Shown here: positions 28,807 through 45,635 of the stretch, piece after piece
Numbering within the stretch: position 1 is the first letter of the stretch
How the letters are laid out: every line of letters starts with the position of its first letter
Position numbers and translations under genes: made by a program
Source: an uncultured Candidatus Peribacteria bacterium
GTDB taxonomy: Bacteria > Patescibacteriota > Gracilibacteria > UBA1369 > UBA12470
Length of the DNA stretch: 64,000 nucleotides
Direction of reading: 5' to 3'
NCBI GenBank assembly: GCA_964344725.1
Contig: CAYFOI010000001.1
Location: 61,762-125,761 of the forward strand
Notes under the pieces: generated by a model
Databases searched by the model: none
Seen by the model: the letters and a program-made list of their open reading frames with translations, nothing else
What the model was told of the DNA's origin: nothing

Positions 28807-30189
28807 ATGAAATTCACATCTTACGGAGCAGCGCGCGAAGTCACTGGTTCAAAGCACCTCATCCAATTAGGGGACAAAAAAGTCCTATTTGATTGTGGAA
28901 TGTTCCACGGTCGCAGGAAGGAAGCGAATCAAAAAAACCGAGAATTCGCATTTAATCCATCAGAAATAGATGCGGTTGTTCTTTCACATGCGCACATTGA
29001 TCACAGCGGAAGCCTTCCGAACCTGGCAAAACAAGGATTTCAAGGTCCGATCTACTGTACTCCAGCAACTCGAGATCTATGCCAACACATGCTACGCGAT
29101 AGTGCATACATCCAAGAACGTGAAGCAGAATATATAAACGAAAAACACCGCAAAAAAGGAGAAGAACTCATTGAGCCGATCTATACACAAGAAGACGCAG
29201 AACTAGCTCTTCAATACTTTAGATCACAAAAATACGGCGAAACTTTTGAGCCAGTAGAAGGGATGAAAGTAACTTTTCGCGAAGCTGGCCATATCCTTGG
29301 TGCAGCAATAGTAGAAATAGAAGCAGAGGGTAAAAAAATAGTTTTCACAGGAGATCTAGGACGAAAAGACTTACCTGTTTTAAAAGATCCATACCTTCCA
29401 GCACAAGCAGATATCTTGATTACCGAAGCAACTTACGGTAATCGCCTGCACGAATCTGTAGTCGAAGCTGAAGAGAAACTAGGAGACATCATAAATCGTA
29501 CAATCAAAAAAGGAGGAAAAGTAATCATCCCCGCGTTTGCACTAGGAAGAACACAGGAAGTTGTATACGCAATCCACAAATTAGTACAAGAAGGTAGGGT
29601 TAGCGCAGATTTGCCAGTTTATGTAGACAGTCCACTCGCAGTCAACGTTACAGACGTATTTAGGCAGCACAAAGAGTGTTATGACACAGAAGCAAAAGAA
29701 CTTTTTACAGACAGAGAAGAAGACGCATTCGGATTTTCACGTCTCAAGTACATAACAAAAGTCGAAGAATCTAAAGCTCTCAACCATCACGTTGGGCCAT
29801 GCATAATTATCTCGGCATCTGGGATGTGTGAGTTCGGACGAATAACACATCACCTCAAGAATAATGTCGAAGACCACAAGAACACAGTTCTCATAGTCGG
29901 ATACATGGCCGAAAATACTTTGGGAAGAAAACTCCTAGAAAAACAGAAAGAAGTCAAAATCTTCGGGAAACCTTATCAAGTCCACGCAGAAGTTGAGGTA
30001 ATTGATTCATATTCAGCACATGCAGACCGTTCAGACCTTCTTAATTTCGCAACACACTTAGAAGGACTTAAAAAAATCTTTATAGTTCACGGCGAGGAAA
30101 CAGCACAAATGGACTACAAAGAAGCTCTTAAACAGAACGGATTCACTGATATACAGATCCCAAAGCAGGGGGAAGAATTTGAGATATAA
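28807..30189 (+). CDS. MBL-fold beta-CASP ribonuclease (CPSF-73/RNase J-like)
   Basis: HAHIDHSG, EATYG and later His/Asp motifs. ~460 aa, typical of COG1236-type RNA-processing exonucleases. Confidence 0.75.
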   Translation: MKFTSYGAAREVTGSKHLIQLGDKKVLFDCGMFHGRRKEANQKNREFAFNPSEIDAVVLSHAHIDHSGSLPNLAKQGFQGPIYCTPATRDLCQHMLRDSAYIQEREAEYINEKHRKKGEELIEPIYTQEDAELALQYFRSQKYGETFEPVEGMKVTFREAGHILGAAIVEIEAEGKKIVFTGDLGRKDLPVLKDPYLPAQADILITEATYGNRLHESVVEAEEKLGDIINRTIKKGGKVIIPAFALGRTQEVVYAIHKLVQEGRVSADLPVYVDSPLAVNVTDVFRQHKECYDTEAKELFTDREEDAFGFSRLKYITKVEESKALNHHVGPCIIISASGMCEFGRITHHLKNNVEDHKNTVLIVGYMAENTLGRKLLEKQKEVKIFGKPYQVHAEVEVIDSYSAHADRSDLLNFATHLEGLKKIFIVHGEETAQMDYKEALKQNGFTDIQIPKQGEEFEI

Positions 30190-31333: not shown

Positions 31334-31361
31334 TTGACATTAACGTTTCGATGAATAAAAT
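31334..31361 (+). promoter_or_regulatory. candidate ilv promoter TTGACA-N16-TAAAAT flanked by palindrome AAACGTT(31323-29)/AACGTTT(31342-48)
   Basis: Direct reading. The transcription start would fall only a few nt before the leader-peptide ATG. Confidence 0.45.
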
Positions 31362-31371
31362 CGAGGTAACT

Positions 31372-31431
31372 ATGAAATTTCTACGCGGAACAAAACTAAT
31401 TTCAATTATTCTAATCCTAGCCCTGAGTTAG
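31372..31431 (+). CDS. Ile/Leu-rich leader peptide MKFLRGTKLISIILILALS
   Basis: 19 codons, with 8 of codons 9-18 being Ile or Leu. It lies immediately upstream of alternative hairpins and a terminator, and of BCAA genes. Confidence 0.65.
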   Translation: MKFLRGTKLISIILILALS

Positions 31432-31453
31432 CGAGATCTTTTATGTAAATATG

Positions 31454-31497
31454 TCCCCGCAAAGAACCTCGCTAACTAAGAAGCGGGGATTTTTTTT
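31454..31497 (+). terminator. attenuator terminator TCCCCGC-22 nt-GCGGGGA + T8
   Basis: Stem 31454-60/31483-89 followed by 8 T. A competing 10-bp stem (31426-35/31468-77) overlaps the leader stop codon. Confidence 0.65.
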
Positions 31498-31806
31498 GGC
31501 CACCTAAAACATATTTACTATCTAAGAACTTAAAAAAATGGATCCCGAAATTACAAGTACCGCAGAAAAGCCAAGCATTACAGCAATAATCGCCCAAATA
31601 GCACAAGAAAGACCAGAATTGTTTGCTAACCAAGGCAAACCGGGAGATGTAGGTCCATGGGACCGGCAGAAGACCCTAGATTAACAGCAGAAATAGAAGC
31701 AAGAATGATGAGAGCACATACAGGTCAGGCAGCCGTAAACGCTACTCAAATAGGAATACCAGCCGCCGCCACTTAAAACTCGTTTACCTCACTAATTCAC
31801 TAAAAA

Positions 31807-33648
31807 ATGAACCACCAGAAATTCTACAAACTTAGATGCGTACAATGTAAGAAAGAAACTGCCGAAGAAAAAACAGCGACGGTTTGCCCAAGTTGCGGAG
31901 GTGCTTTGGATGTGGAATACGATTACGAGTACATCAAATCAAAGATGAATTTCTATTCGCTTAGGAACGCTCCGATATCGGCTAGGAAGTATCTTGGGTT
32001 TTATCCTCTGAACAACCTGAATCTGCTGGTTACGCTGAGTGAGGGCGGAACTCCCCTGAGAAACGCCCACAAACTCGGCAAGAAACTAGGACTGAAAAAT
32101 CTGTATATAAAAAATGAAGGCGCCAACCCCACGGGCGTCTTCAAAGATAGAGGGTCACTTGTAGAGCTTACAAAAGCTCGTGAACTTGGCGCAAAAGCTG
32201 TTTGCTGTGCATCAACAGGTAATATGGCAGCATCTGTTTCCGCTTATGCTGCAGCCTCAAATATGCCATGCTATGTGTTGGTGCCAGAAGGAACGCCAAT
32301 TGGCAAGTTGGCTCAGAGTCTGATTTACGGAGCTCGTATCCTCCAAATCCGTGGAACTTATGCAGACTGTTGTAGGCTTTGTGAGGAGATGGCGAAAAAG
32401 CACAACTTCTATCTTGCTGGAGACTATGTTTTCCGCGCAGAGGGACAGAAGTCTTGTGCTTATGAAATAATTGAACAGCTTTTTTGGAAAGTACCTGATG
32501 CGGTAATTGTGCCGATGGGTTGTGGTACAAACATTTCGGCTATTTGGAAAGGATTTAAAGATCTAAAAGCACTCGGCTTTATAAGAAAAATGCCAAAAAT
32601 GATAGGTGTACAACCTGAAAAAGTACCAACCATCGTTGATGCTTTTAGAAATAATAAAAAGAGATATACGAGAGTCGACAAACCATCTTCAGTAGCATCG
32701 GCGGTTGGAATTGGAGAACCGCTCGATGACATAAAAGCATTACGCACACTGCGCGAATCGGACGGCTGGGCAGAATCAGCAGAAGAAATGGAAATATTAC
32801 AGGCAGAAAAAGACATGGCCCACGAAGAGTCGATATTCGTCGAGCCAAGTGCAGCTTTGCCAGTCGCTTGTTTGAAAAAACTCCTCAAAAAGAAAGTAAT
32901 TAAGGAAAATGACGTTGTCGTATGTATTGCAACAGGCTTAGGACTGAAAGATCCGAAGTCAGCAACAGCAATTATGCCGGATCCACCGGTTTTAGAGCCG
33001 ACAAATGATGACATAGACAGATATCTAAAACACAAAATCTACGAAATTCGTGCAGCCTCAGTCGCAGGACGTGAAAATATGCTTTGGACAAAGATCCCAA
33101 CCAAAGAACAACTCAAGAAAATCGTAAAAAAAGAGTTCAATTTGACCCTGTCCAAAGGACATTTAGAAGAAGCTATCAGGCAAGTTAAGCTTTTCCACGA
33201 AAAAACAGAAAAAATGCGCCAAGCAGACTTGCAGTACATTGTTGAAAACGTCCTTAAGAACTTCACCGACAAGAAAAAAGTCCTAGAAGTTAAAGATTAC
33301 AAACTTGACGTAACTCGCCACGAAAAACCACGTGCAGAAGTAGAAGTCCTATACTTCGGCGAAACAATCCGTGTCGCAGCAAAAGGTGCGGGTCCAGTCG
33401 ACGCTATAATCAAAGCTGCCCGCAAAGCCATAGAAGGGAAGGATAAGCTAGAATGCTGGCTCACATCTTACAATGTAGAGATAAGCACCCAAGGTACAGA
33501 CGCCGTCGTAGAAGTTCAAATGGGTGTGAAATCAAAAGATGGAACAGAAGTCCTAGTCTCAGCAACATCACCTGATATAATCGTGGCATCAATTGATTGC
33601 TTCGAAAAAGGTTACAATAATTTATTCTATAAATCGAATGGCAAATGA
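31807..33648 (+). CDS. threonine-synthase-family PLP enzyme with N-terminal zinc ribbon and C-terminal LeuA/CimA-type (LeuA_dimer-like) regulatory domain
   Basis: CVQC...CPSC ribbon; NEGANPTGVFKDRG PLP-lysine motif; CASTGNMAAS. The C-terminal ~140 aa carry AAKGAGPVDAIIKAARKAI and SPDIIVASIDCFEKGYNNL, as in IPMS/citramalate synthase regulatory domains. Confidence 0.7.
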   Translation: MNHQKFYKLRCVQCKKETAEEKTATVCPSCGGALDVEYDYEYIKSKMNFYSLRNAPISARKYLGFYPLNNLNLLVTLSEGGTPLRNAHKLGKKLGLKNLYIKNEGANPTGVFKDRGSLVELTKARELGAKAVCCASTGNMAASVSAYAAASNMPCYVLVPEGTPIGKLAQSLIYGARILQIRGTYADCCRLCEEMAKKHNFYLAGDYVFRAEGQKSCAYEIIEQLFWKVPDAVIVPMGCGTNISAIWKGFKDLKALGFIRKMPKMIGVQPEKVPTIVDAFRNNKKRYTRVDKPSSVASAVGIGEPLDDIKALRTLRESDGWAESAEEMEILQAEKDMAHEESIFVEPSAALPVACLKKLLKKKVIKENDVVVCIATGLGLKDPKSATAIMPDPPVLEPTNDDIDRYLKHKIYEIRAASVAGRENMLWTKIPTKEQLKKIVKKEFNLTLSKGHLEEAIRQVKLFHEKTEKMRQADLQYIVENVLKNFTDKKKVLEVKDYKLDVTRHEKPRAEVEVLYFGETIRVAAKGAGPVDAIIKAARKAIEGKDKLECWLTSYNVEISTQGTDAVVEVQMGVKSKDGTEVLVSATSPDIIVASIDCFEKGYNNLFYKSNGK

Positions 33649-35339
33649 AATCTGATAATTTTAGTGAACAACAGCTGGGAGGGGGAGCTCGTGAGGGGGA
33701 ACCTAAGGTGCCCACTCACGAATTAAGATCTGATATTTTAAAAAAAGACGTTGCAACAATCCCACACCGCGCGCTCTTGCGAGCATGCGGCGTTACAGAG
33801 GATGACTTCAAAAAACCTTTCATCGGAGTCGCAAACTCATATAACGACGTAGTGCCAGGACACATACATCTGAACGAATTAACAGAGGAAGTTAAGCGCG
33901 GAATCCGCGATGCTGGAGGCGTCCCATTTGCTTGGGGAGTGCCTGGAGTTTGTGACGGGATAGCGATGTATGCGGAAATGCGTTTATCTCTTCCATCTCG
34001 AGAACATATTGCTGACAACATCGAGATCATGATGCTTTCTCATTCGTTTGATGGATGGGTCGGAGTCACTAATTGCGACAAAATTACGCCAGGAATGCTC
34101 ATGGCAGCAGGTCGTTTAGACTTGCCAGCAATGCTGATAACAGGCGGCCCTATGAAAAGAGCGGAAAGTGATGGTGAAAAAGTTCATCCAATCCAAGGAT
34201 TCGGATACGCAGGACAAGTTAAAGCCGGCAAAATGAGCCTCGAAGAAGCTGAAAAGAAACTCCAAATCTGCTCAAAATGTGGAGCCGGCTCTTGCGTTGG
34301 TCTATACACAGCAAACACAATGGCTTGTGTGACCGAAACACTCGGTATGTCCGTCACGAAATGTGCAACGACATGGGCTCTTTCAGAAGAAAAAAAGAAT
34401 CAGGCTTACGAAACAGGTCGTCGCATAGTTGAGTTGGTACAGCAAGACATGAAACCGTCTCAAATTATGACGAAAGAATCTTTTGAAAACGCAGTCAGGG
34501 TAGATATGACAATGGGAGGATCCACAAACGCAGTTCTTCATATCCCAGCGATCGCAAAAGAACTCGGTATCGAGATTGGCAACGACGATTTCGATAGGAT
34601 AGCTCGTGAAACCCCGAACATCTGCAAGCTTATTCCGGCCTCGGACAAATATGAAATGATCGATCTTGATAGGGCAGGCGGAATCCCCGCAGTTTTGAGT
34701 CGGATAAAAGATATGATTAATGATGGACAGACTGTGAACGGACGAACCATTATGGAAATCGCATCTTCAGCTGAAATTCTAGACGATGATGTTGTGAGAC
34801 CACTAGACAATCCTTACTTCGAACAAGGTGGAATAGCCGTTTTGAAAGGCAACATCGCGGAAGGATCTGTAATCAAACAAACAGCAGTCGTAGAAGACAT
34901 GATGGAGCACTCAGGTCCGGCAAAAGTTTTCACTTCAGAAGAAGATTTACTTGTAGCAATTGAGAAGAAAGAGATCGAAGAAGGCGACGTAGTTGTAATG
35001 CAATATATGGGACCGGCTGGAGCACCTGGAATGCCGGAAATGCTTACTCCGACAGACGCGATCAAAGGCGCAGGTTACAAAAAAGTCGCACTAATAACAG
35101 ATGGCAGATTTTCAGGAGGAACCGTAGGTCCATGCATAGCTCATATCGAACCAGAAGCATTTAACGGTGGACCAATTGCAGCAATCCGAGATGGTGACAT
35201 CATAGAAATCAGCGTCCCAAATCGTACACTCAATGTGAAACTCTCAGACGAAGAAATCGCAGAACGTCTCAAAACCGCACAAGCACCAGAAAGAAAAATG
35301 ACATCAGTCCTTGAAAGATATCGTGACATGTATTCATAA
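33645..35339 (+). CDS. ilvD: dihydroxy-acid dehydratase
   Basis: PHRALLRACGV, CDGIAM, CDKITPGMLMAA, TDGRFSGGT. The ATG overlaps the upstream stop (ATGA). Homology begins near codon 24, and an in-frame GTG at 33708 is an alternative start. Confidence 0.9.
   Translation: MKSDNFSEQQLGGGAREGEPKVPTHELRSDILKKDVATIPHRALLRACGVTEDDFKKPFIGVANSYNDVVPGHIHLNELTEEVKRGIRDAGGVPFAWGVPGVCDGIAMYAEMRLSLPSREHIADNIEIMMLSHSFDGWVGVTNCDKITPGMLMAAGRLDLPAMLITGGPMKRAESDGEKVHPIQGFGYAGQVKAGKMSLEEAEKKLQICSKCGAGSCVGLYTANTMACVTETLGMSVTKCATTWALSEEKKNQAYETGRRIVELVQQDMKPSQIMTKESFENAVRVDMTMGGSTNAVLHIPAIAKELGIEIGNDDFDRIARETPNICKLIPASDKYEMIDLDRAGGIPAVLSRIKDMINDGQTVNGRTIMEIASSAEILDDDVVRPLDNPYFEQGGIAVLKGNIAEGSVIKQTAVVEDMMEHSGPAKVFTSEEDLLVAIEKKEIEEGDVVVMQYMGPAGAPGMPEMLTPTDAIKGAGYKKVALITDGRFSGGTVGPCIAHIEPEAFNGGPIAAIRDGDIIEISVPNRTLNVKLSDEEIAERLKTAQAPERKMTSVLERYRDMYS
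33654..33720 (+). repeat. 67-nt G-rich hairpin module, copy 1 (inside annotated ilvD 5' end)
   Basis: 61/67 identical to 35447-35513 by manual alignment. Stems CGTGAG/CTCACG and GGGAACC/GGTGCCC. Confidence 0.9.
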
Positions 35340-37183
35340 TGACAAAGAATATTAAAAAAGGTGAATTAAAATTATACGAGCGCACGTCGAAACAAAAGAG
35401 ACGGGTCTCGTGGGTCCCGGCTCGCCTTGTTTCTAAGTTTAGTGAGGATGATTTTAATGAACAACAGCTGGGAGGGGGAGCCCGCGAGGGGGAACCTAAG
35501 GTACCCACTCGCGACAACTTAACAGGGTCGGATATAATAATGAAAAGCCTTATTAAAGAGGGAACAAAAGTCATATTCGGATATCCAGGAGGCGCGCTGA
35601 TCCCAATTTATGATGCAATGACCAACTATCCAGAGCTCAGGCATATCCTTGTAAGACACGAACAAGGCGCAGCTCTCGCCGCAGACGGATACGCTAGATC
35701 AACCGGCGAAGTTGGGGTTTGCCTAGGGACGTCAGGTCCAGGCGCAACCAACCTAGTCACGGGTATTGCAAACGCATACATGGACTCGGTCCCAATGGTT
35801 GCGATAACAGGACAGGTTAACAAAGGAATGCTAGGTAGCGACGCTTTCCAAGAAGTCGATATTACAGGAATTACGCTCCCGATTACGAAACACAATTATC
35901 TTGTCGACAATACAGAGGATCTCCCGATGATTATTAAGGAAGCTTTTTATATAGCAAAAAGCGGTCGCCCGGGTCCTGTGCATATCGATATTCCAGTCGA
36001 TCTTTGTAAAAAATCTTTAGACAGCTTTGAATATCCAGAAAAAATAGAAATCCCAGGCTTCGAAATCCCAGGTAAAGCGGACGAAGAAGCTGTGAAGAGA
36101 GCGGTAGAACTGATCCAAGAGTCAAAAAAACCGGTAATAATCTGTGGACATGGAGTTCCGATTTCAGGAGCATCCAAAGAGCTCACAGAACTTGCAGAAA
36201 GAAGCCACATTCCAGTAGTTCACACAATCCTCGGCAAAGGATCTTTCCCAGAAAGCAGTCCATTGTCATTCGGAATGCTAGGAATGCATGGTATGGCTTA
36301 TGCGAACTTCGCAGTTCATCACTCAGACTTAATAATCAATGTCGGATCACGTTTTGACGATAGAATTACAGGCAGCTTAGACGCTTTCGCAAAAGGAGCG
36401 AAGGTGATTCATGTCGATATCGACGCATCCGAGATCAACAAAAACGTTCCAGCATACTTGCCAGTAGTCGGTGACGCAAAAAAAGTCCTCAAGCAAATTC
36501 TCGAAATCCTGCCACACAAAAAACACCCAGATTGGCTTGATGAAATCGACGGATGGACTAAGAATTACCCACTCGCAGGCAAGGAAACAGAGATGCTCAC
36601 AGTTCCAAAAGTCCTTGTAAAACTGCACGAAGCAACAAAGGGTGATGCTCTTATAGTAACAGATGTAGGACAGCACCAAATGTGGTCAGCCCAATACTAT
36701 CCCCAAGACAAACCAAATAAATTCCACACATCAGGAGGTCTTGGCGCAATGGGATACGGACTCCCTGCAGCAATTGGAGCCCGTGTCGCAGATCCTGACG
36801 AAGAAATTTGGCTAATCAGCGGCGATGGAAGCTTCCAAATGAACATTCAGGAGCTTATGACAATTGTTCAGGAAAACATCGATATAAAGATCGCAATAAT
36901 GAACAATGGATTCCTTGGCATGGTCCGCCAATGGCAAGAAATGTTTTACGACAAAAACTACTCAGGCACACCGATAACAAGTCCAGATTACCAACTAATC
37001 GCAGAAGGCTACGGACTAAAACACTTAAGAGCTCGCACGGAGCAGGAGGCAGAAGACGTTATAAAAGCGGCTCGCGATCTCAAAGGTACGGTAATATGCG
37101 AATTTATAATAGAGCCAGAAGACAACGTATTTCCAATGGTCGCACCAGGCAAAGGACTAAAAGACACGTTGATTGGGAAATAG
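35339..37183 (+). CDS. ilvB: acetolactate synthase (AHAS) large subunit
   Basis: FGYPGGALIPIYDA, GLGAMGYGLPAAIGA, GDGSFQMN. The ATG overlaps the ilvD stop (TAATG). Homology starts near codon 62, and ATG 35540 is an alternative start. Confidence 0.9.
   Translation: MTKNIKKGELKLYERTSKQKRRVSWVPARLVSKFSEDDFNEQQLGGGAREGEPKVPTRDNLTGSDIIMKSLIKEGTKVIFGYPGGALIPIYDAMTNYPELRHILVRHEQGAALAADGYARSTGEVGVCLGTSGPGATNLVTGIANAYMDSVPMVAITGQVNKGMLGSDAFQEVDITGITLPITKHNYLVDNTEDLPMIIKEAFYIAKSGRPGPVHIDIPVDLCKKSLDSFEYPEKIEIPGFEIPGKADEEAVKRAVELIQESKKPVIICGHGVPISGASKELTELAERSHIPVVHTILGKGSFPESSPLSFGMLGMHGMAYANFAVHHSDLIINVGSRFDDRITGSLDAFAKGAKVIHVDIDASEINKNVPAYLPVVGDAKKVLKQILEILPHKKHPDWLDEIDGWTKNYPLAGKETEMLTVPKVLVKLHEATKGDALIVTDVGQHQMWSAQYYPQDKPNKFHTSGGLGAMGYGLPAAIGARVADPDEEIWLISGDGSFQMNIQELMTIVQENIDIKIAIMNNGFLGMVRQWQEMFYDKNYSGTPITSPDYQLIAEGYGLKHLRARTEQEAEDVIKAARDLKGTVICEFIIEPEDNVFPMVAPGKGLKDTLIGK
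35447..35513 (+). repeat. 67-nt G-rich hairpin module, copy 2 (inside annotated ilvB 5' end)
   Basis: See copy 1. The outer stem here is CGCGAG/CTCGCG. Confidence 0.9.
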
Positions 37184-37254: not shown

Positions 37255-37722
37255 ATGAAAGCAGTCATCCAAATAATCTCAGAAGATCGTCCAGGCGTGC
37301 TCAATCGTGTCACAGCGCTACTACGTCGCAAACGCTTCAATATAATCGGAATCACAGCAGGACCTGTCCTCAGGCCGAACACATCCCGGTTTGCAATAAC
37401 GCTTGATGACACAGAAGAACGCATAGCAACGATCATGAAGCAAATCTACAAACTTGTAGAAGTAATAAGCGTAAAAAACATGGTTGCTGAGGGAGCTATA
37501 ATGCGCGAAATGCTACTTGCTGAATTTGAAAAAATGTACGAAATGCCCGAAGATATGAAAGAGTTCAAAGCAGAAATAATAGGTGAGGACGAGGGCCGTA
37601 CACTCGTAGAAGTAGTAGGATCTCCAGAAGAAATAGATAAATTTATAAATAAATTCCGCGACAAAGGCATGAACAGAATCGCACGAAGCGGAATCACATC
37701 ACTTAAATCACTAAAAACATGA
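37255..37722 (+). CDS. ilvN: acetolactate synthase small (regulatory) subunit
   Basis: ACT-domain start ISEDRPGVLNRVTALLRRKRFNI; ~155 aa; follows ilvB. Confidence 0.85.
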   Translation: MKAVIQIISEDRPGVLNRVTALLRRKRFNIIGITAGPVLRPNTSRFAITLDDTEERIATIMKQIYKLVEVISVKNMVAEGAIMREMLLAEFEKMYEMPEDMKEFKAEIIGEDEGRTLVEVVGSPEEIDKFINKFRDKGMNRIARSGITSLKSLKT

Positions 37723-38096
37723 AAGAAATCGTATCAACAGACCAGGCTCCAGCAGCAGTAGGACCGTACTCACAGGCTACAAAGGCAAACGGATTCGTAT
37801 TTTGCTCAGGACAAATCCCTTACACGCCTGCGGGAGAACTTGTAAGTGAAGATGTGGCCGAACAAGCGAGCCAATGTATGAAGAATGTAAAAGCTGTCCT
37901 CGAAGCTGCAGGATCAAGCCTCGACAGGATCATGAAAACAACAATCTTCCTTAAAGATATGGGAGATTTCAAAACAGTTAACGAAATATACGCATCTTTC
38001 TTCGAGTCGGACCCGCCAGCAAGAGCAACGGTAGAGGTTGCAAGGCTTCCATTAGATGTTAAGGTAGAGATTGACGCAGTTGCACTAACAAACTAG
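37719..38096 (+). CDS. ridA: RidA/YjgF-family reactive enamine/imine deaminase
   Basis: APAAVGPYSQA, GQIP, PARATVEVARLP; 125 aa. Confidence 0.85.
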   Translation: MKEIVSTDQAPAAVGPYSQATKANGFVFCSGQIPYTPAGELVSEDVAEQASQCMKNVKAVLEAAGSSLDRIMKTTIFLKDMGDFKTVNEIYASFFESDPPARATVEVARLPLDVKVEIDAVALTN

Positions 38097-38146: not shown

Positions 38147-39190
38147 ATGCAAATGGATTTCGGTGGCACAGTCGAAGATGTCATCACAAAACAAGAATTC
38201 TCAATGGACAAAGCTAGAGAAACCATGAAAGATGAAACTCTAGCAATAATCGGCTACGGCGTTCAAGGTCCTGGCCAAGCTCTCAACCTCCGTGACAATG
38301 GATTCAACGTAATCATTGGACAACGCGAAGGAGGGAGGTCTTGGGACAAAGCTGTTGAGGACGGTTGGGTGCCAGGAGAAACACTCTTTCCAATAGAAGA
38401 AGCTTGTAAACAAGGAACAGTGATCTTTGATCTACTTTCAGACGCAGGACAAAAAGAAGTTTGGCCACGCATGAAGCCTCATCTTACAGAGGGGAAGACA
38501 CTTTATTTTTCACACGGATTTTCAGTAGTTTACAAAGACCAAACCGGCGTAGAACCACCGGAAAACATCGATGTCATTCTCGTAGCGCCAAAAGGCCCAG
38601 GAGCATACCTAAGAAAACTCTTCCTAGAGGGGAAAGGTGTTAACTCAAGTTATGCTATTCACCAAGACTACTCAGGCAAAGCTCGCGAAAAAGCGCTAGC
38701 AATAGGCATCGGGGTAGGCTCTGGGTTCCTATTCGAAACAACTTTCGAAAAAGAAGTATGGAGCGACCTAACAGGAGAAAGAGGAGTGCTAATGGGAGCG
38801 CTATGCGGAGTTATGGAAGCTCAATACAACGAACTACGCAAACGCGGACATAGCCCAAGCGAAGCTTTCAACGAGACCGTAGAAGAAGCAACACGTAGCC
38901 TTATCCCGCTCATCAACGAGAAAGGCATGGACTGGATGTTCGCCAACTGCTCAACAACAGCTCAAAGAGGCGCACTAGACTGGCGCCATGAATTTCGCAA
39001 GGCAACGGAGCCTGTATTTGAACGTCTATACGATAGCGTCAAAAGTGGCGAAGAAACTCGCATAGTTCTCGAAGCAAACAGCGCCGCAGACTATCGCGAA
39101 AAACTCGAAGCCGAGCTAAAAGAAATGCGCGAATCAGAAATGTGGCAGGCGGGTGAGACAACACGAAAATTGCGTCCAGAGAACAACTAA
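38147..39190 (+). CDS. ilvC: ketol-acid reductoisomerase (class I)
   Basis: IIGYGVQGPGQALNLRDNG, LLSDAGQ, FSHGF, ...CSTTAQRGA. Confidence 0.9.
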   Translation: MQMDFGGTVEDVITKQEFSMDKARETMKDETLAIIGYGVQGPGQALNLRDNGFNVIIGQREGGRSWDKAVEDGWVPGETLFPIEEACKQGTVIFDLLSDAGQKEVWPRMKPHLTEGKTLYFSHGFSVVYKDQTGVEPPENIDVILVAPKGPGAYLRKLFLEGKGVNSSYAIHQDYSGKAREKALAIGIGVGSGFLFETTFEKEVWSDLTGERGVLMGALCGVMEAQYNELRKRGHSPSEAFNETVEEATRSLIPLINEKGMDWMFANCSTTAQRGALDWRHEFRKATEPVFERLYDSVKSGEETRIVLEANSAADYREKLEAELKEMRESEMWQAGETTRKLRPENN

Positions 39191-42985: not shown

Positions 42986-44101
42986 TTAGCTTAGGAAAAA
43001 CTCGCCTTGGCGATGAATTAAACGGAAAGCCTCCATAACTCTAGCTATTTCTTCTTCAGACTCATCACCGCAGATTGTCAAAGGAGATCCGTGGTCTCTT
43101 AGGCGTGCAAAAGTATCCACGACAGGGTCAAGTCCAGAAGCTTCGTGAGGTTCAAGTGCTACACGATTCACCAATATATCGTAGAATCTATCTTGTAAAT
43201 CAGGGAGATGTAGCCAATGCATATCACCTTGCTTAGCACGAAATCCCAACCCCTTGGCAAAAGCATCATAGTCATAATTAACACCTGAAGCTGGAATTAA
43301 AGTAAATCTTTTATCTCTAGCACCTGCTAATGACAAGCATTTCATAGAATCGGCACCGAGATCATAAGCAACATACATAGCAAGTAAGCCGAGAGCTCTA
43401 GAAGGATGTAGTTTTAATGCTTTCTTAAATCTGCCACACGCCTGGACTTTTTCATCATAACCAGCTTTCTTTGGGGACATGCCGCTGCCACAGCGAACAA
43501 TCCTAACAGCTGTACCATCTTCGACCTGTTCAGTATCTAAACCAAGTCGCCAAACTTCTCCAGATATATGAAACCTCTGTCCTTTTTCAACACCTATAGC
43601 CAAATCGACAGAAAATGTCCCTGATCCACTACCACCTTTGCAAGACAAATAACAGCCAGTTCCAGGTATAGTTTCTTTATAAAACATTCCACGTTGTTTA
43701 GAATACTTAGGATGTCTTGCAAAAAAGTCCATTCCAAATCGACTAATCCAAAACTGTGCATTAGTCAAGATCTGATCTAGAACATGATCTAAGTCTGTAG
43801 AGGTAGTCATGTATTTAAAAGCATTAGACTTAAAGAAGTCTTTAAACTGAGTAACAACGCCTAAGTCACCTAGAAACGCAGCAACTCTATCGGATTGATC
43901 TGCAGATGGAGGATCAGAAATAAGACCTTTTAGCTTAAGATACTTCATAAATCCATCAATAACCCTACGAGGCATTTCTACAGATGGAGCAAGATCTAAT
44001 GCTCCCTGATCAGGCAGTAGCAAGCCATCTCCGCCAGGTATAACAAGCCTATCTGTTTTAATCCCTTGATCTTCCATAAGAATAAATATAACGACAGACA
44101 T
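42986..44101 (-). CDS. hypothetical protein (372 aa, no recognised domain)
   Basis: Track ORF trimmed to ATG 44101, because codons 1-31 overlap the tRNA-Gly gene and its terminator. Confidence 0.5.
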   Translation of the reverse strand: MSVVIFILMEDQGIKTDRLVIPGGDGLLLPDQGALDLAPSVEMPRRVIDGFMKYLKLKGLISDPPSADQSDRVAAFLGDLGVVTQFKDFFKSNAFKYMTTSTDLDHVLDQILTNAQFWISRFGMDFFARHPKYSKQRGMFYKETIPGTGCYLSCKGGSGSGTFSVDLAIGVEKGQRFHISGEVWRLGLDTEQVEDGTAVRIVRCGSGMSPKKAGYDEKVQACGRFKKALKLHPSRALGLLAMYVAYDLGADSMKCLSLAGARDKRFTLIPASGVNYDYDAFAKGLGFRAKQGDMHWLHLPDLQDRFYDILVNRVALEPHEASGLDPVVDTFARLRDHGSPLTICGDESEEEIARVMEAFRLIHRQGEFFLS

Positions 44102-44107
44102 AATAAA

Positions 44108-44133
44108 ACAAAAAAGCCTTCTAGTCAAGGCCT
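44108..44133 (-). terminator. weak intrinsic terminator after tRNA-Gly
   Basis: Minus-strand GCCUU-GACUAG-AAGGC followed by UUUUUUGUUUU. Confidence 0.4.
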
Positions 44134-44208
44134 TGGAGCGGGTAACGGGAATTGAACCCGTGTTTACTGATTGGCAACCAGTCGTAATAGCCACTATACG
44201 ATACCCGC
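44134..44208 (-). tRNA. tRNA-Gly (anticodon GCC), CCA encoded
   Basis: Manual cloverleaf: acceptor GCGGGTA/TACCCGC, anticodon stem ACTGG/TCAGT with loop TTGCCAA, T arm ACGGG-TTCAATT-CCCGT, discriminator T, CCA. 75 nt. Confidence 0.9.
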
Positions 44209-44354: not shown

Positions 44355-45635
44355 CTATACTTCAGCCTGTCTCTTCATAATCCCCAAAATAACCTGATTA
44401 GTCTTTTCCATACCCGCAACTGTAATTTCCGCTAAATTCTGCATAGTTTTTTCCGCAGTCTCACCAATAATTCCATTTGGTCCTGATGCACGATATCCAT
44501 CCAAAGCTGCAAAAGCCGCAGACAGAGCGCTGTGAGCCGAACTAGCAACTTTCACAGCACAACCCATATTGGCTCCATTACAGAACATCCCTCCAAGATC
44601 ATTCGCTACATTATCAATCGCATAAGTAATAAGTCGCAGATCTTTTTTCTTCTGGTAAACACAAGCCGCAGCCGCACCAACTCCAGCAGCAATAGCACAC
44701 TGGCAGATAGGGGACAACTCTCCGGCAAAAGCTTTCACATAAGCGTTCAGCAGATGCGAAAGGGCAATACTCCTAAGCATCTTTATCCTTCCGATACCAT
44801 AATGCTTTGCCCAAAAATACGGTACCAAAATCGCAACAATACCCTGATTGCCAGACCCTCCGCTGCTCATAACAGGTAGGGACATCCCAGACATACGACC
44901 ATCAGAAGCTGAAGCCACAGCAATTTTCGCTTCAGAAAACAGACCTTTCTTGACTTCACCCATATCTTGTAAACGCTTAACTTCAGCAGCATACCCATCA
45001 TACTTCAGCCCTTCGTGGCTTGCTTCAAGGTTCATCTCAATGCCTTCTTCAATATATTTAAGATCAGCAGGCGTGGCTTGATCAGCCGCTTCAATAAGGT
45101 CTGCAAGAGTGGATCTCTCGAGTTTCTTTTTATATACCGACAAAGTCATGCCCTTTTTATGACCAGACTTTTTCTTGACGCTCACACCATTTTTCTTAAG
45201 CTCAATTAAATTCGTATGACTCTTCACGATTTTAGCGATTCCTTCACCTTTATCTGTTTTCACTTTAACGCGAATATATAAATACGGCTTTGAAAAATTC
45301 GGTTTCAAAACAACCTCATGAGCAGCAAGTAGCTTCTTAGCTTCCTTGAGATCTTTCTTCTGAACATTTTGCAAAACGCTGAGCCCATCTTGTGGATCAC
45401 CGCAAAGAGCTCCAAGAGCCGCAGCAACAGGTATGCCTATTGCACCTTCCGCGCCAGGAATAGCAACATTCATTCCATTCTTGAACGTCCCAGCATCCAA
45501 CATGACAGTCACGCGCCAAACCTTCCCGCCAACAACATTGCTCGCATAAGCAGCAGCAAGCGCTACCGCAACAGGTTCGGTACAACCCATTGCAGGCATC
45601 ACTTCATGCTTGAGAACTGATTTAAGGAGAGTCAT
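44355..45635 (-). CDS. UPF0597 / L-cysteine desulfidase family protein (serine dehydratase alpha-like)
   Basis: N-terminal ...PAMGCTEPVAVALAAAYA is the hallmark of the YhaM/CdsB family; ~426 aa. Confidence 0.7.
   Translation of the reverse strand: MTLLKSVLKHEVMPAMGCTEPVAVALAAAYASNVVGGKVWRVTVMLDAGTFKNGMNVAIPGAEGAIGIPVAAALGALCGDPQDGLSVLQNVQKKDLKEAKKLLAAHEVVLKPNFSKPYLYIRVKVKTDKGEGIAKIVKSHTNLIELKKNGVSVKKKSGHKKGMTLSVYKKKLERSTLADLIEAADQATPADLKYIEEGIEMNLEASHEGLKYDGYAAEVKRLQDMGEVKKGLFSEAKIAVASASDGRMSGMSLPVMSSGGSGNQGIVAILVPYFWAKHYGIGRIKMLRSIALSHLLNAYVKAFAGELSPICQCAIAAGVGAAAACVYQKKKDLRLITYAIDNVANDLGGMFCNGANMGCAVKVASSAHSALSAAFAALDGYRASGPNGIIGETAEKTMQNLAEITVAGMEKTNQVILGIMKRQAEV

Follow-up and report, generated by a model that had tools for sequence, protein, structure and literature searches.

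Which enzyme supplies 2-oxobutanoate to an isoleucine-valine (ilv) operon that carries no threonine deaminase gene (ilvA)? The question is raised by a 64,000-nucleotide stretch of an uncultured Candidatus Peribacteria genome (contig CAYFOI010000001.1, positions 61,762 to 125,761; the whole stretch analysed is called the window below), in which such an operon begins with a gene for a threonine synthase (ThrC)-like enzyme fused to a regulatory domain of the type found in LeuA and CimA. The fusion gene and the genes that follow it are these:

31807..33648, plus strand: fusion gene, 613 aa (zinc ribbon, ThrC-like pyridoxal phosphate (PLP) domain, LeuA-type linker, regulatory domain (R-domain)), a single uninterrupted open reading frame (ORF)
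33645..35339, plus strand: ilvD, dihydroxy-acid dehydratase (TIGR00110, 678 bits), its start overlapping the fusion stop codon
35339..37183, plus strand: ilvB, acetolactate synthase large subunit (TIGR00118, 754 bits)
37255..37722, plus strand: ilvN, acetolactate synthase small subunit (TIGR00119, 96.7 bits)
37719..38096, plus strand: ridA, enamine/imine deaminase (TIGR00004, 175 bits)
38147..39190, plus strand: ilvC, ketol-acid reductoisomerase (TIGR00465, 336 bits)

The order fusion-ilvD-ilvB-ilvN-ridA-ilvC, all on the same strand and followed by an unrelated CPA2 antiporter, bears out a first-pass annotation of this DNA, made from the sequence alone, which had placed the fusion as the first gene of an ilv operon that also encodes RidA. 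The same annotation had seen no ilvA in the operon, and in a phmmer comparison of all window ORFs the fusion proved to be the only PALP-family protein, which leaves the 64 kb without an ilvA. From the comparative evidence set out below, we consider it fairly probable (about 0.65) that the fusion makes 2-oxobutanoate in place of IlvA. That it is a neofunctionalised ThrC paralogue which, under feedback control, catalyses the committed step of isoleucine synthesis with threonine as its substrate is a narrower proposal, to which we would give even odds.

The protein is composed of four parts, encoded as follows:

31825..31920, plus strand: N-terminal zinc ribbon, residues 7-38 (C11, C14, C27, C30), from cysteine conservation and the structural model
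32029..32937, plus strand: fold-type II PLP catalytic domain, residues 75-377, with Schiff-base lysine K113 (Pfam PALP, E=1e-72)
33019..33216, plus strand: helical linker, residues ~405-470, homologous to the subdomains that in LeuA connect the catalytic barrel to the R-domain (NCBIfam LeuA alignment, Foldseek)
33217..33624, plus strand: LeuA/CimA allosteric (LeuA_dimer) domain, residues 471-606, beta-beta-beta-alpha x2 fold (Pfam PF08502)

The 613-aa ORF contains the strings CxxC...CxxC (at C11/C14/C27/C30), NEGANPTGVFKDRG, CASTGNMAAS, AAKGAGPVDAIIKAARKAI and SPDIIVASIDCFEKGYNNL. Its first ~410 residues had been described as a zinc-ribbon ThrC-like enzyme, a description that the CxxC pairs, the PALP match and the top ranking of ThrC models all uphold. 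The four zinc-ribbon cysteines are kept in at least 90% of 119 aligned homologues, and in the AlphaFold model of the whole protein, built with these homologues (mean predicted local distance difference test score (pLDDT) 87.5), the ribbon comprises beta strands 7-11 and 33-38. The top matches in the PDB are the threonine synthases 2ZSJ, 6CGQ, 2D1F and 1UIM, to which the catalytic domain is ~39% identical. ThrC models likewise head the NCBIfam ranking (PRK08197, 305.3 bits against a cut-off of 303, a borderline score; TIGR00260, 244.9 bits against 167.1). The IlvA models TIGR01124, TIGR01127 and TIGR02079 gave 69-94 bits against cut-offs of 379-577, which indicates no IlvA orthology. Identity as a cysteate synthase was rejected (TIGR03844, 70.8 bits against 324.9), and this model was also missing from the table of models matching the archaeal relatives at E<=1e-40. 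Pfam found no HMGL-like TIM barrel, the N-terminal 400 residues being zinc ribbon and PALP, so the protein is not a whole LeuA or CimA; nor did it find the ACT-like Thr_dehydrat_C domain, and LeuA_dimer occupies the position that a regulatory domain has in IlvA.

The last ~140 residues had been assigned to the LeuA_dimer domain, and this was confirmed by both sequence and structure. PF08502 matches residues 471-606 with E=1.9e-22, its 80 bits exceeding the gathering score of 24.9 and the alignment taking in model positions 3-130 out of 131, and a sequence profile of the C-terminal region had a sole match in the PDB, Leptospira citramalate synthase (LiCMS; 3F6G, E=1.2e-13). The AlphaFold model of residues 401-613 (pLDDT 84.8) was compared with known structures by Foldseek, as the first-pass annotation had proposed, and matched the isoleucine-bound R-domain of LiCMS (3F6G/3F6H; template modelling (TM) score 0.80-0.86, root-mean-square deviation 2.2-2.9 Å) and Mycobacterium tuberculosis LeuA (1SR9/3FIG, including the leucine complex; E ~1e-7, 172-179 columns aligned). 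No other fold was found below E=1e-3, the next match having a ~10^4-fold weaker E-value, and an unrelated fold is not supported. The ~60-aa linker that had been described before this domain exists as an interdomain stretch, but it is no mere linker: bacterial LeuA models (NCBIfam) align residues 405-609, or over a shorter span 409-609, with LeuA 300-504 and 310-504 respectively, and because the alignment runs from residue 405 onwards the stretch N-terminal to the R-domain is LeuA-derived.

Six of the seven positions of the LiCMS isoleucine pocket, which we take to be Y430, D431, L451, Y454, I458, T464 and V468, are kept in the fusion (D532, L552, Y555, I559, T564 and V568); the seventh, Y430, is Val, as in isopropylmalate synthase (IPMS). 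The fusion thus shares with the R-domains of LiCMS (3F6G/3F6H, with isoleucine) and M. tuberculosis LeuA (3FIG, with leucine) the PF08502 family, the fold, the GxGxxDA loop, the LeuA helical linker and most isoleucine-pocket positions, and differs from them in carrying the R-domain on a PLP enzyme and not on an HMGL-like TIM barrel, as well as in the Val for Y430. The predicted effector is a branched-chain amino acid (BCAA), which by pathway logic would be isoleucine.

An assembly error or frameshift joining two genes was considered and rejected: 119 full-length homologues (52-87% identity) share the architecture and conserved linker residues, and at least 76 independent loci carry the fusion. 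The fusion of a ThrC-like enzyme with a LeuA/CimA sensor domain is therefore real, and it is widespread. More than 120 protein clusters (90% identity) are full-length PALP plus LeuA_dimer proteins, 52-87% identical to the query, corresponding to ~15 fusion clusters at 50% clustering, and all named members are annotated as threonine synthase. When one genome was scanned for each species, at least 444 species genomes turned out to encode a relative. The allosteric wiring had been called unusual; the architecture is not rare, although no characterisation of it was found, our literature searches returning no paper that describes a threonine synthase plus LeuA_dimer architecture. Reviews on the metabolism of Peregrinibacteria and of Methylomirabilis did not go into pathway detail.

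Gene context was compared in the best 80 of the at least 444 genome matches, each with 10 kb on either side; all 80 are full-length fusions. The hosts are Peregrinibacteria/Peribacteria, Gracilibacteria, other Patescibacteria and many Methylomirabilota (NC10). The loci were divided into 40 low-GC (type of the Candidate Phyla Radiation, CPR) and 40 high-GC (mostly NC10), GC content serving as a proxy for CPR versus NC10; they are phylogenetically related, and the counts that follow do not represent independent events. The closest locus, from a Peregrinibacteria metagenome-assembled genome (L001), encodes a fusion 78% identical to the query in an operon of identical order, which makes a peregrinibacterial origin of the window most likely. 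Among the low-GC loci, ilv genes lie beside the fusion in 30 of 40, ridA in 13 of 40 and either or both in 38 of 40, and ilvE (class-IV aminotransferase) is nearby in 26 loci, in most of them directly 3' of the fusion. A 513-aa protein family (family 18) encoded 3' of ilvE in some loci was considered as leuA or cimA and rejected, being a membrane protein. The association with ridA extends to relatives without the sensor domain: two have ridA 4 bp downstream or overlapping (P0132, P0154) and a third immediately upstream (P0031).

Neither an IlvA-like PALP protein nor CimA was found in 1.34 Mb of DNA flanking the fusions, which includes ~30 otherwise complete ilv operons; the other matches in these flanks were only one trpB, ThrC paralogues and one true leuA. 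No gene of the threonine pathway (hom, thrB, ask, asd) lies near the fusion in the window or in the 80 loci. A Methylomirabilis locus (L078) carries the fusion and, ~5 kb away, a separate canonical-motif thrC of 354 aa adjoining hom, and canonical-motif zinc-ribbon ThrCs were found in thrB-thrC-hom-ask and thrC-ask-asd-thrB operons.

Three further gene arrangements were seen. On the JGI contig that encodes P0154, an overlapping upstream gene of 410 aa specifies an HMGL-like protein (the IPMS/citramalate synthase catalytic domain, without LeuA_dimer) and ridA lies downstream; the arrangement may be left over from the exchange of domains, or may hint at how it took place. A panE/ApbA gene (ketopantoate reductase) lies 3' of the fusion in 11 of the 40 high-GC loci and is the sole recurrent metabolic neighbour there (e.g., L035 8579-9490; L061 7879-8802; L042 15116-16027). 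Directly upstream of the fusion in two NC10 loci (L016 1312-2562; L061 4656-5891) is a third zinc-ribbon ThrC-like paralogue of 411-416 aa with the motif set LKDRS, STGNAGSS, GASRNPYKQEGKK and PVAVGE, so some NC10 genomes carry three ThrC-family genes.

The region 5' of the fusion gene contains the elements of a predicted transcription attenuator:

31334..31361, plus strand: sigma-70-like promoter TTGACA-16-TAAAAT, matching the consensus at 11 of 12 positions, better than any other site in the region scanned
31373..31432, plus strand: leader peptide ORF MKFLRGTKLISIILILALS, 19 aa with 4 Ile and 5 Leu, read from the sequence
31455..31497, plus strand: intrinsic terminator, CCCCGC...GCGGGG stem and U8, from a terminator scan

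Folding gave the terminator stem -12 kcal/mol and the whole folded leader region, with a competing long hairpin, -27.6 kcal/mol; in the competing hairpin the region of the leader stop codon pairs with the 3' arm of the terminator. Rfam at the gathering threshold found no T-box, riboswitch or other known leader RNA in the window, the only match being a tRNA. An Ile-rich ORF of 15-25 aa (with runs such as IIII) lies within 260 nt 5' of the fusion in 15 of the 40 low-GC loci, where a hairpin and U-run follow it and the terminator lies ~50 nt past its stop (among others L001 9833-9941, L005 9864-9973, L013 8123-8231, L017 9864-9972 and L059 9860-9971). Such leader-type ORFs occur at 1.7/kb 5' of the fusion compared to 0.03/kb elsewhere in the loci, a 54-fold enrichment (Poisson P ~2e-21), and contain 30% Ile, 16% Leu, 10% Val and 3.5% Thr. 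With an Ile/Leu-rich ORF, a terminator, a competing hairpin and conservation 5' of orthologous operons, the element has the predicted make-up of a leader-peptide attenuator, and its composition is the signature expected of an isoleucine-controlled operon, not of a threonine operon. It resembles the enterobacterial ilvGMEDA, ilvBN and leu attenuators in its short ORF, enriched in the regulating amino acids, and in combining alternative hairpins with an intrinsic terminator 5' of a BCAA operon; it differs in having no sequence similarity to them and no Rfam family, in occurring in Patescibacteria and in the dominance of isoleucine in the leader. In the window ~300 nt separate the terminator from the fusion start (31500-31806), with small ORFs at 31538-31684 (48 aa) and 31657-31776 (39 aa); in the relatives the leader is only ~90-150 nt 5' of the fusion gene.

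Isoleucine must be the product of an operon attenuated through isoleucine codons, which therefore calls for a supply of 2-oxobutanoate, and we propose the fusion together with RidA as that supply because it is the only candidate in these operons. The ilv and RidA neighbours, the isoleucine control and the lack of any other candidate for supplying 2-oxobutanoate within the operon form an IlvA-like functional signature, which supports the protein working like IlvA and not its membership of the IlvA family. The fusion and IlvA have in common the PLP fold superfamily, the operon position, a layout of catalytic domain followed by C-terminal sensor, and a predicted role in the committed, isoleucine-controlled formation of 2-oxobutanoate with RidA as partner; the fusion is not orthologous, and its sensor is LeuA_dimer and not the ACT-like Thr_dehydrat_C. 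It is thus probably an analogue of IlvA, and threonine synthase, as it is called in the databases, is probably a misnomer.

The catalytic domain shows how far the fusion departs from ThrC. It shares with the short-class enzymes (Aquifex 2ZSJ, Thermus thermophilus 1UIM, Bacillus subtilis 6CGQ) the fold-type II PLP domain, the FKDRG lysine, the STGN loop and EGQK/R160, and its N-terminal zinc ribbon also occurs in many archaeal and other ThrCs. In T. thermophilus numbering, K61 (K113 of the fusion, in VFKDRG) and R160 (R210) are kept, whereas T88, N154, S155 and N188, which do not vary among the five crystallised ThrCs (from Aquifex, Bacillus, Mycobacterium, Thermus and Arabidopsis), are M140, G205, D206 and C239 in the query; R160 is thus the only one kept of the five distal-site residues that are invariant in those structures. 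K113, M140 and G205-D206-Y207 are invariant in the 119 fusion homologues, as are R210 and the EGQK motif. The work of Omi in 2003 and of Murakawa in 2011 is said to have shown that T88, N154, S155 and N188 hold the phosphate of the O-phosphohomoserine substrate or product, and the latter reportedly also that the retained phosphate is the base for water addition, a ThrC without bound phosphate giving 2-oxobutanoate only.

A phylogeny with ThrC, one of the checks that had been suggested, placed the fusion in a clade apart from the crystallised enzymes. The signature STGNM / GDYxFRxEG (hence GDY clade) occurs in 36 of 146 ThrC-like representatives, which form one clade without intruders in a neighbour-joining distance tree without bootstrap support; in the same tree the five crystallised ThrCs and the NC10 housekeeping ThrC belong to another clade of 13 sequences. 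T88, N154 and S155 are replaced throughout the GDY clade, and N188 in the query and most fusions. Compared to ThrC, the fusion therefore has a clade of its own, M/G/D/C in place of T88/N154/S155/N188, ~210 extra LeuA-derived residues at the C-terminus and linkage to ilv and ridA, not to hom, thrB or ask, and in NC10 it coexists with a canonical thrC. The survey also contained a group of ~490-aa ThrC-like proteins in which the Schiff-base lysine is replaced (F[ILVN]DRG, not FKDRG) and which have a ~70-aa C-terminal extension (P0148, P0172, P0187, P0191, P0219, P0221, P0223, P0227, P0236, P0243, P0246, P0255 and P0267); these may be pseudoenzymes or regulators.

In the mechanism that we propose, the PLP domain (K113) would form a PLP-aminocrotonate intermediate, most likely from L-threonine, and would release 2-aminocrotonate instead of adding water. 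The co-encoded RidA would then convert the enamine/imine to 2-oxobutanoate and ammonia, and IlvBN, IlvC and IlvD (with IlvE in most relatives) would carry 2-oxobutanoate on to isoleucine. The C-terminal LeuA/CimA-type module would dimerise and bind a BCAA (isoleucine by pathway logic, as in citramalate synthase), the binding being inhibitory, and attenuation of transcription by the Ile/Leu-rich leader peptide would add a further control. Two parts of this scheme have precedents. RidA is known to hydrolyse the enamine released by threonine/serine (PLP) dehydratases (PMC3565831), and bona fide ThrCs have a weak threonine dehydratase activity that is able to rescue the loss of ilvA (bioRxiv 10.64898/2026.09.15.751699; PMC12172450). 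We favour L-threonine as substrate on the grounds that amino-acid biosynthesis is sparsely encoded in CPR genomes, published Peribacteria genomes having very few genes for it (PMC4736985).

The chemistry proposed for the fusion is that of the promiscuous formers of 2-oxobutanoate, namely the ThrCs of B. subtilis and T. thermophilus, Microcystis ThrC_1 and, reportedly, mammalian THNSL2. By analogy, promiscuous ThrCs show how short an evolutionary route may lead from synthase to deaminase or lyase. Theirs are side or moonlighting activities of unfused proteins, whereas the fusion would be a dedicated lineage, allosterically equipped and embedded in an operon.

Several observations weigh against a role in place of IlvA. 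The fusion exceeds the cut-offs of the curated ThrC hidden Markov models (HMMs) TIGR00260 and PRK08197, its catalytic domain retains ~39% identity to real ThrCs, and R210, the equivalent of R160, is invariant, so some anion site probably persists. Microcystis ThrC_1, reported to convert O-phosphohomoserine to threonine, has a different variant motif set (NINLRPYYSEGSK); since this enzyme is reported active with a variant motif, motifs alone cannot exclude synthase activity, and excluding ThrC activity on the substituted motif alone was rejected as unsafe. In a sister subclade, made up of short archaeal GDY proteins (Methanocella, DPANN), neither ridA nor ilv genes form the context, the 40 high-GC fusions, mostly from NC10, are without ilv linkage, and several CPR loci consist of ridA and the fusion only, which would also fit a catabolic role. 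The HMM similarity of the R-module is highest to the leucine-binding IPMS, which leaves the identity of the effector uncertain. The first-pass annotation had offered two options, a BCAA-regulated threonine synthase and a ThrC-derived replacement of IlvA. A genuine threonine synthase, inhibited by BCAAs through the LeuA-type domain and placed in the ilv operon as threonine is the precursor of isoleucine, with IlvA encoded elsewhere, would account for the HMM scores, for true ThrCs being the best sequence and structure matches, and for the retention of the PLP lysine, the STGN loop and R160, and a ThrC subfamily with non-canonical motifs has been reported active. Yet the NC10 locus L078 already has a canonical thrC beside hom, thr operons hold canonical-motif zinc-ribbon ThrCs and not GDY ones, and the leaders are Ile-rich and nearly Thr-free. 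The tight pairing with ridA, seen in unfused relatives too, would serve no purpose if the enzyme were a synthase releasing no enamine, ~30 otherwise complete ilv operons have no IlvA, and of the residues invariant in five crystallised ThrCs three are replaced clade-wide and a fourth in most fusions. We therefore regard this first option as unlikely; the second is favoured by the comparative evidence taken together, namely the clade, the substitutions, the NC10 thrC-hom pair, the ridA/ilv linkage, the Ile-rich leaders and the absence of IlvA from the flanks.

A different substrate would leave the role as an IlvA analogue intact. The enzyme could act on O-phospho-L-homoserine by gamma-elimination and release aminocrotonate, giving 2-oxobutanoate for isoleucine, the remodelled site no longer positioning the leaving phosphate to catalyse water addition. 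All of the context evidence for threonine as substrate applies equally here, the invariant R210 and EGQK mean that an anion-binding site may persist, and in NC10 hom and thrC can supply phosphohomoserine. The reported outcome for ThrC without bound phosphate, 2-oxobutanoate only, also agrees with it, and B. subtilis ThrC and mammalian THNSL2 are said to convert phosphohomoserine to 2-oxobutanoate. Set against this, the changes S155 to Asp, T88 to Met and N154 to Gly lose hydrogen-bond donors and add negative charge at what is reportedly the phosphate site, neither hom nor thrB lies beside the fusion in CPR loci, and the supply of phosphohomoserine is doubtful in many hosts, given the few amino-acid biosynthesis genes in Peribacteria (PMC4736985). 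This substrate is improbable. Less likely still is another PLP reaction, whether serine/cysteine elimination, a cysteate-synthase-like beta-replacement or a catabolic threonine/serine dehydratase unrelated to isoleucine. Such a reaction would suit the loci in which ridA and the fusion occur without ilv genes within 10 kb (L006, L007, L009 and L019) and the NC10 loci without ilv linkage, and the ThrC superfamily has repeatedly yielded new activities, cysteate synthase among them. It is at odds with the cysteate synthase score, far below its cut-off, with the derivation of the fused sensor from BCAA-pathway enzymes and with the dominant context, a complete ilv operon behind an Ile-rich attenuator.

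Should the fusion replace IlvA, at least 444 species genomes, and many more proteins from metagenomes, would represent a misnamed enzyme that is the missing first enzyme of isoleucine synthesis, and the reconstructed metabolism of Patescibacteria and Methylomirabilota would have one gap fewer. Some CPR bacteria, usually deemed amino-acid auxotrophs, would run a regulated isoleucine/valine pathway fed by threonine. The fusion would join IlvA and CimA as a third way of taking the committed step to 2-oxobutanoate, and would be a clear case of an allosteric sensor module moved between non-homologous catalytic scaffolds of one pathway. With O-phosphohomoserine as substrate, the route to isoleucine would instead bypass free threonine through a ThrC-derived, isoleucine-gated phospho-lyase with RidA as obligate partner, and would serve Patescibacteria and NC10 in place of both IlvA and the citramalate pathway. 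The conserved Ile-rich leaders, for their part, would indicate classical ribosome-mediated attenuation in CPR bacteria.

Some minor features of the window were also recorded. In the ilvB ORF (35339-37183) the ~58 N-terminal residues lie outside all acetolactate synthase models, the alignments beginning at residue 59, and the true start may be downstream of the overlap with the ilvD stop. A 460-aa beta-CASP/metallo-beta-lactamase nuclease is encoded at 28807-30189, its best matches being archaeal aCPSF1 and the type VII CRISPR Cas14 model, the latter at 440 bits where the cut-off is 800. On the minus strand, an SDH_alpha / UPF0597 (cysteine desulfidase-like) protein (44355-45635) adjoins the window's only tRNA gene (44137-44208, minus strand); the mechanically called ORF at 42986-44194 overlaps this tRNA, and its 5' end is probably spurious.

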